Origin: Verrucomicrobiota bacterium
GTDB lineage: Bacteria; Verrucomicrobiota; Verrucomicrobiia; Limisphaerales; UBA9464
Length of the DNA stretch: 64,000 bases
NCBI GenBank assembly: GCA_016871615.1
Contig: VHCX01000006.1
Coordinates: forward strand, 5,171-69,170
Direction of reading: 5' to 3'
The notes beneath the pieces are model-generated. The model was not told the DNA's origin and did no database searches. It saw nothing but the letters and a program-made list of their open reading frames with translations. The position numbers and the translations under genes were made by a program. Positions 10,402 through 49,167 of the stretch are shown here, in pieces (the first letter of the stretch is position 1; each line of letters begins with the position of its first letter).

Positions 10402-11241
10402 TCAGAGGATGCTCTTGAAGCGGCGCTCCAGAAGGCTCATGGCCCGGTCGAGCGAGAAGCCGACCAGACCGATGGTCACGATGCAGAGGACGATGCTCGT
10501 GTAGAGGCCGTTGTTGTATTCGTTCCAGAGAAAGTTCCCGATGCCGATGCGACCGGTCAGCATCTCGACTGCCACGATGACCAACCAGGCGATGCCCAGG
10601 CTCAGTCGGTAGCCGGTGAACATGTACGGCAGCGTCGCCGGGATCATGATCCGGAACAGGGTCTGGGTCCGGGAGAGCTTCAGGACCCGGGCTACGTTCA
10701 GGTAGTCCTGCGGGATGGCCCGCACCCCGACCGCGGTGTTGAGGACCGTCGGCCACATGGCGCAGACCGCGATGGTGAAGAGTGCCGCCAACTCGTTGGC
10801 GCTCTTGCCGGCATTGGCAAAGAGCACCACCCCCAGCGGCATCCACGCCAGGGGCGACACCGGTCGCAGGACCTGGATGATCGGGTCGAACATCTTGGAG
10901 AACGTGGCCGAGAGGCCCAGGAGGAATCCCATCGGGGTTCCCAGGACCAGGGCGATGGCATAGCCCTTGGCCACGATCACCAGCGAGTACCACGTGAACC
11001 TAAGGATTCCCTGGTCGAGTTCCTCGCGTTTGGCGAAGGGTTCCACGACGTACTTGCGGGTCTTCTCCCAGGTCTGGACCGGACCGGGCAGGTCCTGGAC
11101 CCAGCCAAGCTTGACCTCCTCGACCGTCCCGTCGGCCAGGCTCCGGGTCACGGTCCGGCCCGAGATCATCTGCCAGGCCAGCAGGGTCAGGGCGATGCCC
11201 ACCAGCGGCATCACCACCGATTCCCAATGGATCTTCTTCAT
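10402..11241 (-). CDS. nrtB: Nitrate ABC transporter permease (NrtB)
   Basis: DPIIQVLRPVSPLAW, WPTVLNTAVGV, AWLVIVAVEML. Confidence 0.88.
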   Translation of the reverse strand: MKKIHWESVVMPLVGIALTLLAWQMISGRTVTRSLADGTVEEVKLGWVQDLPGPVQTWEKTRKYVVEPFAKREELDQGILRFTWYSLVIVAKGYAIALVLGTPMGFLLGLSATFSKMFDPIIQVLRPVSPLAWMPLGVVLFANAGKSANELAALFTIAVCAMWPTVLNTAVGVRAIPQDYLNVARVLKLSRTQTLFRIMIPATLPYMFTGYRLSLGIAWLVIVAVEMLTGRIGIGNFLWNEYNNGLYTSIVLCIVTIGLVGFSLDRAMSLLERRFKSIL

Positions 11242-17625: not shown

Positions 17626-17661
17626 CCCAAAAGGGGTCGGTCCTCACTTTTGACACAAGCC
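17626..17661 (+). repeat. Solo copy A of RAYT-flanking repeat
   Basis: CCCAAAAGGGGTCGGTCCTCACTTTTGACACAAGCC, near-identical to 46713-46745. Confidence 0.9.
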
Positions 17662-17750
17662 CCGGGCTCCGCGGACGCACCCCCGCCGGTTCCATGGTGC
17701 GGATCCTCCGGACCGACGGCGGCGGCGCATGCCCCCGGCCCCTCCCGGGA

Positions 17751-19334
17751 TCACCTCGTCTGATTCCGGAGGATGAGCACCGACGGGCCTTTCTCGCGCC
17801 AGAGTCCCTTGAGCTTGTGGGGCACCGGGGTGGGCATCTCGATGAGGGAGCCCAGCACGAGGTCGTCGTCGCCGTCGCCATCCAGGTCCCCGGCCTCGAG
17901 GGAGATCCAGCGTCCCGTGACGCCCTGCCGCAGGGTCTGGGCCTTGAAGGCCAGGTCCTTGCCGCCGGCGGGCGTCGTGTTCTCGAAGTGGAGGAAGCCC
18001 TCCTGCGGGGTGAGTTCGTAGTCGGGAAAGAAGGAGATGGCGGCGATGTCGAGGTCGCCGTCCCCGTCGAAGTCGCGGGCGATGGCCCGGTAGGCCCCGT
18101 GCAGGGGCGAGGACCAGGCCTGCTCCCAGCGGAGTCCGCCGCGGTTCCGCAGGATCCGCACGCCGTGGTAGGGCTTGTTGGGGGAGGTGTCGAAGTCGGC
18201 ATTATCACCGTTGGTGACGAGGATGTCCGGCAGGCCGTCGCGGTCGAAGTCGGCCAGCTCGAAGCCGGAGTGGCCCCAGCTCGGCGGCCTCTGCTGCACG
18301 AGTTGACGGCGGAACCGGCCGCCACCCTCGTTGAGGAAGAGCAGCAGCGATTCGCGCGCCTGCGCCTGCAGGACCATCAGGTCGGGTCGACCGTCGCCGT
18401 TGAAATCGCGGATCTCGGAGCGCAGACAACCGGGCTCGGGCAGGATGACCCGCTCGGTGAACCCGCCGTCGGCCCGCGCCTCCAGCCAGAGGAGCCGTCC
18501 AAGGTGGTTGCCGAAGGCGCAGACCACCAGGTCGGTGCGGCCGTCGCCGTTGAGGTCGCCGGCGGCCACGTGGGACACCCTCGGGAGTCCGGAGAGGATC
18601 GGCTCGGGGCGCAGGGGCGAGGCCTTGCGGTGGACACGGAACACCTGGCCCACCGGCTCCTCCCGCGGGAAGAAATGCCCGATGGCCCCGATGAACCAGT
18701 GGGCGTCGGCCGTGGCGAGGCTGACGGCGATGTTGCCCAGCGGCAGGGACCCGATCAGCCGGCCCGAGCCGTCGAGGACGTCGAGGCCCTGCCCGCCGGC
18801 GTCCGAGGCGAGGATCAGGCCCTCGGCCGGGTCGATGCGCACCATCGGGGTGCGCGGCGGGGAGCGCCGGTGCGGCGCCATCTCCGGCCGAAACCGCGGC
18901 AGGCCCACCTCGATGGAGGGCGGCTCGCCCGGATCGAGCCGTTCCGGCGCGGCGCGGGTGTAGTAGTCGGCGATCTGGTCGAACACCGCCGGCGGGATCA
19001 GCGGTCTGCCCGGGAAATAGCCGGCCGCCTGCAGGATGGGAAGGTCTCGGAAGTAGCCGTTGGTGGGCGCCGGATCGACCCCGGTCACGTAGCGCATCTT
19101 GGGCAGCAGCTCGCGGCTCCAGGTCCGGCGGTCGAGGTCGGACGGGCTCGGCAGCGCGTGGCAGAGCACGCAATGGATCGAAGCAGCCCGACGGCCCGGG
19201 TGGTCGGCGAGCGCGTCGGCCGTGGGCACCATGGGCGGCGAGAGATCACCCGGGCCGCCTCCGGCCAGGCACCGGACGAGCTGCAGGATCAACCCCAACG
19301 CGCCGACGGGCAGCACCCGGACCCCGGACGCCAC
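17751..19334 (-). CDS. FG-GAP/VCBS repeat protein with N-terminal CxxCH heme-binding motif
   Basis: CVLCH; repeats DLNGDGRTDL, DFNGDGRPDL, DFDRDGLPDI, DFDGDGDLDI, DLDGDGDDDL. Start uncertain. Confidence 0.75.
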   Translation of the reverse strand: MASGVRVLPVGALGLILQLVRCLAGGGPGDLSPPMVPTADALADHPGRRAASIHCVLCHALPSPSDLDRRTWSRELLPKMRYVTGVDPAPTNGYFRDLPILQAAGYFPGRPLIPPAVFDQIADYYTRAAPERLDPGEPPSIEVGLPRFRPEMAPHRRSPPRTPMVRIDPAEGLILASDAGGQGLDVLDGSGRLIGSLPLGNIAVSLATADAHWFIGAIGHFFPREEPVGQVFRVHRKASPLRPEPILSGLPRVSHVAAGDLNGDGRTDLVVCAFGNHLGRLLWLEARADGGFTERVILPEPGCLRSEIRDFNGDGRPDLMVLQAQARESLLLFLNEGGGRFRRQLVQQRPPSWGHSGFELADFDRDGLPDILVTNGDNADFDTSPNKPYHGVRILRNRGGLRWEQAWSSPLHGAYRAIARDFDGDGDLDIAAISFFPDYELTPQEGFLHFENTTPAGGKDLAFKAQTLRQGVTGRWISLEAGDLDGDGDDDLVLGSLIEMPTPVPHKLKGLWREKGPSVLILRNQTR

Positions 19335-19545
19335 GCCGTGGAGTCCTGGGCCACCGGATCGGGATGGAGACCGCAGGATCCTCAAGCGTCCCCAGGCTAA
19401 CCCCGAACCAGCCGCGATGGAAGGGGCCGAATCCCGGGCCGGCGGAATGCCGGCCTCTCGCATCGCTGGGGGAATTTTGCCGGTGCCGACGGAGCGGCTG
19501 AGGATGCCGGAGGGCCCTGCCAGCCAGCCCGACACCCCGGGGACC

Positions 19546-39186: not shown

Positions 39187-39224
39187 GGCTTGTGTCAATA
39201 GTGAGGACAGACCCTTTTGGGATC
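39187..39224 (-). repeat. Solo copy B of RAYT-flanking repeat
   Basis: Reverse complement reads GATCCCAAAAGGGTCTGTCCTCACTATTGACACAAGCC. Confidence 0.9.
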
Positions 39225-45818: not shown

Positions 45819-46664
45819 TCAGTTCAGAGGCTTCCAGTTCACGTAACGGTAGCGGTCCCAGACCCAGCGGAAGTCGGGGTTGCGCCCGGTGCCACCCGCC
45901 CAGAAGAAGCTCTCCCGGCCCGCACCCGAATCCCGGGCGGCCTTGATGGTGGCCCCATCCAGCCACTTGTGACTCTCGGAGTGGCCGTCCTGGAACCCGA
46001 AGGTGCTGACCTGGCCGTGGAAGATCGTGAAGGGATCGACCCAGCCCGGAGGCGACGTGTTGATGACCCAAGTCCCCATGTTGTAGCCGCGCGGGTCAGC
46101 CTCCTCGACGAAGACCATGGACTCGGACGGGTTGGTCACCTCGGACTCCTTCTTGTAGGGCACGGCCGAATCCCATCCCATGCCGTTCATGCCGTTGGCC
46201 TTGGAGTAGCTGTCGAAGGCCCAGCCGCGTCCCGGTGCCAGCTTCATGCGGGAGTCGCCCGGACAGTGATAAACCTGATAGCCTTGGCAGTATTGCTGGA
46301 GCGGGGCGTTGCTCATGCCGCTGTAGACCCGGCGCAGCGCCTCGGCTTGGGTGATGCCCGCGGCCAAGCCCGGCATCGGACTGCGCCAGTAGCCGCCGCC
46401 CACCAGGTCCACGACCGCGTTGTTGACGCGGATCTGCGTCGGCATCAGGTCGGACTGGTTGTCGTTGGAATACAGGATCCAGCCCAGCACCAGTTGCTTC
46501 TGGTTGCTCACGCAATTGGCCCCGGTGGCCTTCATGCGGGCACGACCCAACGCCGGCAGGAGCATGCCCGCGAGGATCGCGATGATCGCGATCACCACCA
46601 GGAGTTCGATCAGGGTGAAGCCCGAGCGCCGACGCGTCCCGGGGGCGTATGGAAACGTTTTCAT
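45819..46664 (-). CDS. Prepilin-type N-terminal cleavage/methylation protein with H-X9-DG motif
   Basis: [25 protein letters not shown]; [13 protein letters not shown]. Confidence 0.88.
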
Positions 46665-46712
46665 GGGATTTGCATGGATGGTCCAACCGTCCCCATGCCA
46701 CGCAAGCAAAAA

Positions 46713-46745
46713 CCAAAGGGGTCGGTCCTCACTATTGACACAACT
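46713..46745 (+). repeat. Left 33-bp inverted repeat flanking RAYT-like gene (copy C)
   Basis: CCAAAGGGGTCGGTCCTCACTATTGACACAACT. Confidence 0.95.
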
Positions 46746-46748
46746 CTG

Positions 46749-47699
46749 CTATCGCGCGGACCTGGCCCCGGTCTCGGCCGTCGCGCCCAGCAGGTTCGAC
46801 ACATAGGTCCAAACCCCCATGCCCAGCCTCCGGGCGATCCACCCCAAGGTCATGGTCGTCTCCCGGCGCAGCCGTCGGGCGATCCTCACCTTGTCCGGGT
46901 CACCCTTGCGACGACGGGATAGCTCGTCCCCGTCCCAACCCAGCGCGGCCAATTCCTCGACCACGAGGCGCTCGGCCTTGGCCTCCTCGGTCTCCTGCCG
47001 CTCGGCCCCGTAGTTCTGGGCCCCCACGTGCTGCGAGGCCTTGGCCAAGAGTTCCTCCTTGAGCGCCTTCTTGCCAAAGAACCACCCGCGCCGGATGGGC
47101 GCCCACTGGCTGCCGTCGCCCTCCTGCCGACGGCGGTCCTCCATGAGCCGCTCGAAGTCCCGGCGGCCGGCCGCGCTGTCCTGGGTCAGGCGCATCTCGC
47201 CCAGCAGGCGGTCGACGCGCAGCCAGGGCCAGCGCCGGGTCGGAGCCTTCAGGTATTCGGCGTGGCTGCTCCAGCGGTAGTCGCGCAGCGGCTGCCCCGA
47301 CGGGATCAGGTTCGCCCGCACCGGGTTCAGGTGCACGTAGTCGCAGACGGTGCGGAAGTATCCCGGGGCGGTCGAGTCGACCAGCAGCGCCTTGTAGCGG
47401 CCGCCGAAGAGGTGGCCGGCGAGACCGTGGCGACGGTTGAACCGCGCGGTGTAGGTGCCGAGGAACCACTTCATGCCCGCGACGAGGTTCCGGCGGGGCG
47501 TCTCCACCACGAGGTGGAAGTGGTTCGGCATGAGGCACAGCGCATGGACCTGCCAGTCGGTCTTGGCACACGCCTCGGCGAGGGTGTCGAGGAAACGCAG
47601 GCGGTCGGCGTCGTCGCGGAAAATGGGTTCGCGCCGGTCTCCGCGGTTCATGACGTGGTAGACCGCGCCTTCGTACTCGATGCGCAGGGGACGGGGCAT
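46749..47699 (-). CDS. REP-associated tyrosine transposase-like HUH nuclease (Y1_Tnp) with C-terminal HTH
   Basis: MPRPLRIEY.GAVYHVMNRG, CLMPNHFHL (HUH), GHLFGGRYK, YVHLNPVRA (catalytic Tyr), YRWSS, TLGWIARRLGM. Confidence 0.9.
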   Translation of the reverse strand: MPRPLRIEYEGAVYHVMNRGDRREPIFRDDADRLRFLDTLAEACAKTDWQVHALCLMPNHFHLVVETPRRNLVAGMKWFLGTYTARFNRRHGLAGHLFGGRYKALLVDSTAPGYFRTVCDYVHLNPVRANLIPSGQPLRDYRWSSHAEYLKAPTRRWPWLRVDRLLGEMRLTQDSAAGRRDFERLMEDRRRQEGDGSQWAPIRRGWFFGKKALKEELLAKASQHVGAQNYGAERQETEEAKAERLVVEELAALGWDGDELSRRRKGDPDKVRIARRLRRETTMTLGWIARRLGMGVWTYVSNLLGATAETGARSAR

Positions 47700-47705
47700 G
47701 GGCGG

Positions 47706-47735
47706 AGGTTGGGCGAGCGGGGGAAGTTGTGTCAA
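47706..47735 (-). promoter_or_regulatory. Candidate leaderless promoter of the RAYT gene using the repeat's TTGACA
   Basis: TTGACA-N18-CAACCT-N6-ATG. Confidence 0.45.
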
Positions 47736-47757
47736 TAGTGAGGACCGACCCCTTTGG
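47725..47757 (-). repeat. Right 33-bp inverted repeat flanking RAYT-like gene (copy D)
   Basis: Exact reverse complement of 46713-46745. Confidence 0.95.
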
Positions 47758-47759
47758 GA

Positions 47760-47996
47760 TCACCACACCCAGATCGCGTTGCGACCCACCGGGGAGGACG
47801 GCGAGGGCCGGTAGCGCCCGGAGAGCAGCACCCGTCCCGCCTCGTCCCAGAGGCCCCCGTCGAGTTCGGCCACCCGCGCCGTGCCGGCATCGCACGGGGT
47901 CTGCCCGGTGGCGAGCACGACCTCGACCGGAGGCGTGACCGCCCGGGCCAGCGTGGCAAGACCTATCAGACCGGGCAGCCAGCGTCGAAGGCCCAT
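47760..47996 (-). pseudogene. 5' fragment of a secreted protein, ending at the repeat boundary
   Basis: Signal peptide MGLRRWLPGLIGLATLARA, then ~60 aa. The TGA stop overlaps the GATCCC outer end of repeat D. Confidence 0.5.
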
Positions 47997-48049
47997 GGGA
48001 AGAGAAAAATGGAGATTTTGTCCGGTCTTGGATGAATCCGGCGATTGGA

Positions 48050-48932
48050 TCAACCTAAGGAGGCCGCGTGGAACAAAAATGCCCCTTCTTTTCGATAGGC
48101 GTCTTCGGGGTTGATCAGGCCGAGACGGCTCTCCCAATAGGTGTTGGCCGCATCCTGCACCGGCCCTTGGATGGCCGCCATGGTCTGATCCCAATGGACG
48201 ATGGCTTGACCCATGTTCCAGGCCATGTCTCTGGCCTTCAACGGATCAAGGGCCAAGCTGCCCAACTCGATGATCCCTTGCACCTCCTCGGAAGCGGCCC
48301 CTGCGGCGCCTTCCAAGCGGAGCAGCATGGCACCCATCACATCGTCGGGCCGTCTGGATTGTTCGTTCTTCAGCGTGAAGACTGTCGCCTTGGGAACGAA
48401 TTCGATCTCCAGTCGGTGGCTGTAGGACAGGTTTTCAAAGGGCCGCCCCACCGCGCCCGGAGAAGGCATACCAATATCTTCCGATTGGAACTCGTACTCG
48501 AAGAGCTTATCGATGGCACCCGCCTTGTAATACCAAAGACTGTCCCCCCCCGCTGCCATCGCGGCGGTAGTACTTCACCGACCGACGCTCCACCAAGACG
48601 TCACGACCATCCTTCGCCGACGGATTGGAGTAACGGGCCACCGTCTTGGGGTCCGTGTACACCGAACAAATCCCCATCCTGTCGTCCGCGCTGGTCGGTC
48701 CGTAGTAGGTCATCCGAATGAACCGCCAGAGGTCTCCGGTCACCGGATCCATCTCCTTTGCGCTGAGGGGGCCATGGATCTTGACCCCTACGGCGCCTAC
48801 GGCGGCATAGGCGCCCGACGGGAATCCGGGGAGATCCGGCAAATAACCGCTGTCTTGGGCACAGGCCCGGAGCATGAGGGCCACCCACCCGAAAATCCTG
48901 AAGAGGTGAATCTCGAATTGGGAGTTCCTCAC
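48050..48932 (-). pseudogene. Secreted hypothetical protein split by a frameshift in a G8 run
   Basis: ORFs 48507-48932 and 48050-48559 join in frame (…RRDGSGGDSLWYYK…) if the G8 at 48544-48551 were G7. The region is more AT-rich than its neighbours. Confidence 0.6.
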
Positions 48933-49167
48933 AAGTGCCTTGATGTCAGAACTGCAACTCAGGCCTGCCCTCCGAGCTTGGAACCACGCCCAGAATCACG
49001 GATTCCGGCGTGGCTCCATTCGCCTTCGAAGGCCTCGAGGCCCTCGCCGAGGCCGACATTCCGCAGCGGGAGAGACTCTTGGCAAGCCCGAAGGGACAGG
49101 CGAGAGGGCCGCCCGCCCGTGAGGTGTCAGGCGCCCGCTTCGGCGGCTTTGAAACGCGGGCCGGCGT

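Follow-up and report, generated by a model that had tools for sequence, protein, structure and literature searches.

What kind of genetic unit is formed when a single nuclease gene is closed off on both sides by perfect inverted repeats is the question raised by positions 46,713–47,757 of a 64,000-nt stretch of DNA from a Verrucomicrobiota bacterium (assembly GCA_016871615.1, contig VHCX01000006.1, positions 5,171–69,170); this whole stretch is referred to here as the window. The gene encodes a HUH/Y1 nuclease that resembles the RAYT proteins, the REP-associated tyrosine transposases, where REP stands for repetitive extragenic palindrome. A first-pass annotation of the window had presented the unit as an undescribed enzyme/repeat system that seeds solo repeats and rearranges neighbouring DNA. 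Our analysis led to a different classification. With a probability of roughly three in four, we assign the unit to the TIRtrons, as a single-copy TIRYT gene (TnpA-Y1 subclass 2.1, Group 1 RAYT of Bertels) located between 33-bp terminal inverted repeats (TIRs).

The two arms of the inverted repeat are each 33 nt long, are 100% complementary, and are separated by 979 nt. A search of the window with the 33-mer at up to three mismatches recovered two places, which are the arms themselves, and none was found in 100 dinucleotide-preserving shuffles. The left arm is composed of CCAAA, a GGGGTCGG box, CCTCACT, ATTGACAC, and AACT. The sole open reading frame between the arms lies on the reverse strand and spans 46,749–47,735 if read from a TTG. 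The ATG at 47,699 yields a protein of 316 residues, the same length as in the identical protein cluster, and it is also the start common to the orthologues. The 1,045-bp arm–gene–arm unit is a tightly enclosed single gene (Table 1). Reading the arm sequence identified neither GTAG nor CTAC, and on neither strand did one arm with its flanks fold better than its shuffles (z 0.07 to 1.58). No direct repeat indicative of a target duplication adjoins the two arms of the gene unit. A promoter reading of the TTGACA in the arm was rejected, as inspection revealed no acceptable −10 box at 17 nt, and a search of 46,300–48,200 against Rfam returned one chance snoRNA row (E 0.65) outside the element. These results confirmed the anatomy proposed in the first-pass annotation, namely an intact RAYT-like HUH/Y1 frame tightly bounded by an exact 33-bp inverted repeat, with no GTAG tag, no hairpin REPs, and no target duplication.

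The N-terminal domain of the protein shows the features expected of the HUH/Y1 superfamily. The Pfam Y1_Tnp model (PF01797) matched residues 12–123 with an E value of 2.4e-12 and 47.5 bits against a cutoff of 23, and the catalytic motifs correspond to NHFH at residues 59–62, Tyr121 within YVHLNP, and WSS at residues 143–145. In the family alignment, H62 is kept in at least 90% of the sequences, whereas R101 and Y102 are invariant. An AlphaFold (AF2) model of the whole protein, built from a 70-sequence alignment, reached a predicted local distance difference test (pLDDT) value of 92.2 and a predicted template modelling (pTM) score of 0.88. The solved structure that best matched this model in Foldseek was 4er8_A, in which the E. 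coli REP-associated tyrosine transposase is complexed with a REP hairpin (E 1e-6, TM score 0.71 on the target, root-mean-square deviation (rmsd) 2.5 over 148 columns), and ranks 2–30 were occupied by the TnpA transposases of ISDra2, IS608, and IS200. Domain score, HUH motif, catalytic tyrosine, and TnpA-like fold were thus all found in this protein. A profile search of solved structures by sequence returned chance-level ribosomal and RhoGDI rows (E 0.07–0.9) and did not reach TnpA-REP. The NCBIfam transpos_IS200 model scored 19.6 bits, with a cutoff of 55.

The catalytic domain is followed by a helical linker and a C-terminal domain, in which K270, A274, W287, L292, and G295 are the conserved residues of the alignment. 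When this tail was modelled alone (residues 150–316, pLDDT 85.6) and compared with 48,161 representative chains using VIA, the top four rows were all DnaA domain IV: 8btg_A (Z 7.2, rmsd 4.2 over 80 residues), 1l8q_A (Z 6.7, rmsd 2.6 over 84 residues), 3pvp_A (Z 6.7, rmsd 2.9 over 72 residues), and 1j1v_A (Z 6.3, rmsd 3.3 over 75 residues). These matches cover residues 78–166 of the tail model. Judged from the model, the tail likely adopts a DnaA-domain-IV-like helix-turn-helix (HTH) fold. The C-terminal HTH predicted earlier thus found its support in the structure model, with Pfam remaining silent.

The arms belong to a repeat family that is dispersed over the whole 3.83-Mb genome (G000), which we searched by mismatch count with a 24-nt repeat core, GGGGTCGGTCCTCACTATTGACAC. 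At up to three mismatches we identified 64 copies (41 perfect, 19 with one mismatch, three with two, and one with three), at up to four mismatches 67 copies, and with the reversed core as control 0 matches. Four copies lie in the window, the two arms and two solo copies (Table 1). Across the 67 aligned copies, conservation starts abruptly at CAAA and stops abruptly at CAC-AA, which delimits a module of ~30 nt with sharp borders, CAAA-GGGGTCGGTCCTCACTATTGACAC-AA. Intergenic DNA holds 62 of the 67 copies, whereas 76% of 5,000 random points were intragenic; the gene calls used for this count were rough, being made by codon-usage scoring, and called 81% of the genome coding. The copies have no fixed position relative to gene starts and form clusters on contigs C64, C91, and C122.

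With regard to their arrangement, 37 copies are solos, in agreement with the earlier proposal that the repeat is seeded as solo copies, and 15 outward-facing pairs have their GGGG ends outermost. The latter comprise the gene-flanking pair, eight pairs whose cores are 46–154 nt apart, and six tight palindromes with a gap of 4–5 nt. No inward-facing pairs were closer than 900 nt, and at offsets 0–6 the 15 outward pairs were all free of flanking direct repeats of at least 3 nt. The inner sequences of the pairs show no relation to one another, and the pairs are therefore not copies of one miniature element. In the tight palindromes, the variant bases are identical in both arms (C19 and C113) and different between palindromes, which suggests that each palindrome either was copied from one arm or is subject to correction between its arms.

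This combination of gene and repeats corresponds to a class that has already been described. RAYT-like genes with long terminal inverted repeats other than GTAG-REPs were named TIRYTs, and their units TIRtrons, in 2013 (Di Nocera, De Gregorio and Rocco, 2013, BMC Genomics 14:522, PMC3733652). That paper states the TIR motif GGGGWSAS for some, not all, TIRYTs and reports that some TIRs form moderately abundant dispersed families of singles, dimers, and groups or clusters. According to a later study (Quentin et al, 2018, BMC Genomics 19:475, PMC6006769), 20 of 26 TIRYTs fall in subclass 2.1, identical to Bertels Group 1. The authors give as subclass motifs NH[YF]H/NHVH for HuH, Y[IV]HLNP/YIELNP, SS in the tail, and W[EQ] or FQ as the W motif; they describe a long C-terminal extension resembling Bac_DnaA_C, HTH_23, or HTH_28, and note that GGGG[AT][CG]A[CG] is unlike a DnaA box. 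Contrary to what the first-pass annotation had held, the system is therefore not undescribed: the class was named in 2013 and equated with subclass 2.1 in 2018, and the repeat of the window essentially matches a known kind of element end, the TIRs of TIRYTs with GGGGWSAS.

The window unit shares with the TIRtrons the RAYT-like HUH/Tyr gene, long non-REP TIRs, a GGGGWSAS-type box, a dispersed repeat family, and a protein longer than RAYTs. Going by the names given to relatives, the present host is a lake Verrucomicrobiota. The box of the window arms, GGGGTCGG, differs in agreeing with GGGGWSAS at 7 of 8 positions, and exact GGGGTCAG, the full motif, is found in ~15% of the copies in the genome. 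In comparison with subclass 2.1, NHFH, YVHLNP, and WSS fit the motifs, REP-like hairpins are likewise missing nearby, and the flanking 16-mers are likewise moderately abundant. However, the protein has 316 residues against a stated subclass median of 238, and the likeness of the tail to Bac_DnaA_C is seen in the model fold only, the Pfam model giving no score. The 64 module copies are also well above the mean of 12 copies quoted for Group 1 RAYTs in Bertels' study (PMC5581495).

The distribution of the repeat across related genomes connects it with the enzyme. Of 24 genomes from the genus, four are rich in the core, with 64 copies in G000, 26 in G005 (61% complete), 21 in G014 (88% complete), and 13 in G010, and the remaining 20 have 0–3 copies. 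An orthologue of the gene (86–89% amino acid identity) was found in G000, G005, and G010. On sequence evidence, enzyme and repeat are one system, because it is mainly the sister genomes with the orthologous gene that have the repeat in abundance. We also surveyed 51 homologue loci out of 61 related genomes and identified flanking inverted repeats at 29 of them. In 28 of these 29, the repeat opens with a GGGGTC-type box, which is followed by a clade-specific inner part and, in many cases, by ATTGAC; exact GGGGTCAG was present in 21 of 28 homologue TIRs. Sister loci clearly have TIR types in common, and over 28 loci TIR distance was weakly correlated with protein distance (Mantel r 0.22, reached by 50 of 2,000 permutations), in a test that left out L096, which is without the anchor box, and in which related loci are not independent. 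The co-occurrence and co-variation of enzyme and repeat that had been anticipated are thereby borne out, the latter weakly in the Mantel test.

A second cognate pair was identified in the same genome. A paralogue with 59% identity at C103:7563-8486 has its own inverted repeat, GGGGTCAGTTCTTGATATTG / AAAGGGGTCAGTTCTTGATATTG, in 14 copies, and its module is of the TTCTTGATATTG type. The repeat of this second family also bounds gene fragments and short TIR-bounded remnants, and the family is more insertion-sequence-like than the single-copy gene of the window.

The history of the locus could be followed through the sister genomes. There is one gene copy in G000, and the orthologues in G010 and G005 occupy the same locus, adjoining the same prepilin-type gene (N_methyl motif). 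The outer junction is the same in all three genomes, ...gcaagc(c)aaaaa/CCA(A/T)AGGGG, with the stroke marking the junction. The gene end facing it is the 5′ end in G010 and G005 and the 3′ end in the window, and the segment between the arms was therefore inverted in one lineage. This inversion may have arisen by ordinary recombination between the 33-bp arms or through the enzyme. The earlier statement that the system rearranges neighbouring DNA is supported as far as the inversion relative to two sister species goes. On the other side, the arm in G010 runs directly into the stop codon of an Fe-alcohol-dehydrogenase gene (window 49,163 onward), G005 has lost the arm on the dehydrogenase side, and the window has an extra 1.4 kb (47,758–49,162) adjoining the right arm, which is absent at this locus in G005 and G010. 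Because this stretch is contiguous with the dehydrogenase gene in G014, and most of it is present in four more members of the genus, it is old and was lost in the G005 and G010 lineages. Its G+C content is 0.57–0.64, compared with ~0.69, and its open reading frames have no Pfam match.

The ratio of nonsynonymous to synonymous divergence (dN/dS) was 0.11–0.15 among four orthologues, with dS of 0.43–0.58 between G000 and G005/G010, and over this same divergence the arms differ at 0–1 positions. The gene is vertically inherited and under purifying selection. Because dN/dS is low and the arms are near-identical, gene and arms are long-standing residents, maintained by selection or by arm-to-arm exchange, not a recent insertion. 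We also examined Logan contigs from lake and freshwater metagenomes. The inner contig (46,717–47,753) ends within both arms, and the orientation of the gene in the population is unreadable from the contigs. Candidate excision products, joints of the “skips 982–987” kind with 1–3 letters between, were rejected, as they match tight palindromes elsewhere in the genome. The region 46,554–46,657, at the 5′ end of the prepilin-type neighbour gene, reached a depth in the thousands from lake metagenome contigs and is evidently common to many related genes and organisms.

Module turnover was apparent from the same genomes. Of the module sites in G005, G010, and G014, many have an orthologous counterpart in G000; others are confined to one lineage. 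At some orthologous sites the copy is perfect in one genome and decayed in another. As an example, the module at G000:C3:18985-19008 is perfect, and the orthologous copies in G005 (L157) and G014 (L158) are decayed, with a 12-nt insertion mid-module. Separately, single-gene segments that are absent from G005 or G010 were observed immediately next to solo modules, on their inner (CACAA) side (Table 1). We do not claim these gene-sized indels as a sign of repeat-driven rearrangement; they may be coincidental, as the modules lie in intergenic DNA and this is also where any whole-gene indel has to end.

Table 1. Coordinates of the TIRtron, its protein domains, and related features in the window and elsewhere in the genome (G000).
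Feature	Coordinates	Strand	Remarks
TIRYT gene, RAYT-like HUH/Y1 nuclease with helical linker and C-terminal HTH	46749..47699	-	316 aa plus stop
Left terminal inverted repeat (gene-downstream)	46713..46745	+	33 nt, ends 3 nt short of stop codon
Right terminal inverted repeat (gene-upstream)	47725..47757	-	33 nt, ends 25 nt ahead of ATG
N-terminal HUH/Tyr catalytic domain, ~residues 1-150	47250..47699	-	Pfam Y1_Tnp, Foldseek
C-terminal helical DNA-binding-like domain with HTH, ~residues 227-316	46752..47021	-	Alignment and structure model
Solo copy of repeat core, 1 mismatch	17633..17656	+	Orthologous site also occupied in G005
Solo copy of repeat core, 2 mismatches	39192..39215	-	Core search of window
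Tight palindromes, two modules head to head	C19:36986-37037, C24:32026-32078, C74:3586-3637, C91:9843-9895 and 11099-11151, C113:5972-6024		4-5-nt loop
Single-gene segments beside solo modules	Window 17666-19545; G000:C13:13316-14329; G000:C15:41742-43403		FG-GAP repeat protein, TauE-type exporter, PIN-domain protein
Second TIRYT family	C103:7524-8541 (locus L032), C14:99-622, C17:3935-4192, C106:5-423		

Several results weigh against the assignment of this unit or against the tie between its enzyme and its repeat. At the W motif the protein has FG (LFGGRY), whereas W[EQ] or FQ is stated for subclass 2.1 in PMC6006769; the consensus of the family alignment at this place is HLFxGRY, with Q common. 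The NCBIfam RAYT model (REP_Tyr_transpos equivalog) gave 51.8 bits, below its cutoff of 80. As to the tail, its Z values of 6.3–7.2 fall in a range that the tool warns is common for helical models, and for this reason the fold is likely rather than proven. Foldseek gave no match to the tail at E ≤ 0.001, with DnaA entries just at E 2.6 and 4.8, and Pfam gave nothing for the last 183 residues at E ≤ 10, and hence no HTH family, the Bac_DnaA_C model being silent as well. Across genomes, no orthologue was found in G014, although this genome is 88% complete and has 21 copies of the core; it has just a fragment of another family member (50% identity) at a contig end. This case counts against a strict one-to-one link of enzyme and repeat, or represents an assembly gap. 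Also, 22 of the 51 homologue loci have no flanking pair, some of them being cut by contig ends, and at 13 of 15 pairless loci examined, which are mostly syntenic same-genus loci with ~60% identity, the upstream copy alone is kept. No clean empty site was found at three loci compared with G005, G010, and G014, where intergenic DNA is diverged or replaced and too distant for insertion borders to be placed. Finally, binding, nicking, and movement were seen in no form in this sequence-level analysis. Among the pairless loci, the syntenic L054–L061 and L063 (same genus, ~60% identical) have a module-like copy of the GGGGTCGGTCCCACCTATTTACAC type upstream, 45–300 nt from the start, and no downstream partner copy was found at them.

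The analysis shows the anatomy of the unit, its intact catalytic motifs, that gene and module co-occur and co-vary, that target duplication is missing, and that gene and arms are under selection; how such an enzyme would act is a hypothesis. The tail would recognise the module, most likely through the conserved boxes GGGGTC(A/G)GT (outer) and ATTGAC. The module would be read either in duplex form or as a fold-back stem made by two inverted modules in single-stranded DNA, a stem whose sequence is that of the duplex. The HUH/Tyr centre would nick and rejoin single strands at the module borders, and in this way modules would be copied to further intergenic positions with no duplication of the target. 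The upstream module, 25 nt ahead of the start codon, would probably provide autoregulation as well. In the most far-reaching form of this proposal, TIRYTs would represent a mode of HUH transposition beyond the experiments made so far, in which a DnaA-like HTH reads a non-palindromic 30-nt module (duplex or fold-back) and guides a single-strand nuclease, and in which the enzyme both copies solos and flips or deletes DNA between inverted modules. We regard this form as tentative and consider the odds to be against it. If true, such an HTH-guided mode would explain the inversion of the gene between sister species as well as the gene-sized indels on the inner side of solos.

We considered four other explanations for the locus. 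The first is domestication, in which a former transposase would now serve mainly as a DNA-binding regulator or genome-structuring protein, with the modules as operators or architectural binding sites that selection, rather than continuing transposition, maintains, and catalysis as a secondary activity. A single-copy gene that is syntenic in three species and under purifying selection agrees with such a role, as do the module placed 25 nt upstream of the gene's own start codon, the retention of the upstream copy alone at 13 of 15 homologue loci examined (mostly in the same genus), the many modules at orthologous sites in sister genomes, and the conservation of the arms far beyond that of synonymous sites. 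However, the HUH motif and tyrosine are intact and conserved, which pure binding would not need, and the copies do not keep to a fixed position relative to gene starts. In addition, 41 of the 64 copies are perfect, and copy numbers that differ between sister species, together with copies specific to one lineage, fit recent copying. We consider domestication unlikely.

In the second explanation, the whole 1-kb unit would be mobile as an autonomous insertion sequence, leaving the solos and pairs as decay products or miniature derivatives. The C103 family behaves in this manner within the same genome, where it has multiple gene copies or fragments as well as short remnants bounded by TIRs, and relatives reach up to 12 matches per genome, many of them with stop codons or at contig ends. 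The gene of the window, in contrast, has one copy, occupies the same locus in G005 and G010, and shows a divergence like that of its flanks. Furthermore, the unrelated inner sequences of the pairs show that these are not deletion derivatives of the 1-kb unit, and the solos have a sharp inner border at the module end. The comparison with the IS200/IS605 TnpA proteins (IS608 and ISDra2) is limited to the HUH/Y1 fold: those elements are multi-copy, frequently include tnpB, and have subterminal hairpins that point the same way, whereas the window unit is single-copy and hairpin-less. Mobility of the unit as a whole therefore appears very unlikely.

The third explanation is a canonical REP/RAYT system, or REPtron, with GTAG-tagged hairpins as repeats that are read as single-stranded stem-loops. 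The definitions of these terms reportedly go back to Nunvar in 2010, Bertels and Rainey in 2011, and Ton-Hoang in 2012, and of the features that they name the locus shows a single-copy, vertically inherited gene and abundant flanking 16-mers, but not the GTAG-tagged REP hairpins. The locus resembles E. coli TnpA-REP (4ER8) and the RAYT with REP-BIME in that the catalytic fold is the best structural match, and in both a single-copy gene lies between inverted repeats, further repeats are dispersed extragenically, and target duplication is missing; JGI also names relatives “REP element-mobilizing transposase RayT”. The repeat anatomy nevertheless contradicts this explanation, since the repeat has no GTAG/CTAC guide and a single arm forms no stable hairpin. 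In addition, the NCBIfam RAYT score is under its cutoff, and the protein is twice the length of TnpA-REP and has an extra tail. Recognition probably differs from that of TnpA-REP because of this added HTH. A canonical REPtron is thus highly implausible. Equally hard to credit is the fourth explanation, in which an unrelated DDE transposase would move the modules in trans as miniature elements and the Y1 gene would be a passenger: just the outer GGGG of the arms, which may resemble Tn3-type ends, and the likeness of the outward pairs to miniature inverted-repeat elements speak for it, and against it stand the lack of a target-site duplication in 15 of 15 pairs, a module abundance that follows the cognate Y1 gene across the genus, and a TIR variant of its own for each Y1 clade.

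The preferred reading, a TIRtron carrying a TIRYT gene, makes the window unit a real and well-preserved member of a described class, and not a new category. What is new here is the synteny with an inversion, the dN/dS values, the definition of the module borders, and the second cognate enzyme/repeat pair in the same genome. The class is very large, with 1,390 clusters at 50% identity (E ≤ 1e-30) and at least 7,964 clusters at 90% identity (E ≤ 1e-3), yet we found no experimental or biochemical study of TIRYTs in the literature searched. In this respect the locus offers a clean natural case, combining an intact gene under selection, perfect arms, a 64-copy repeat family, a second cognate pair, and a gene that is flipped between sister genomes. 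It is a useful model locus that is well suited to initial assays of TIRYT binding and cleavage.

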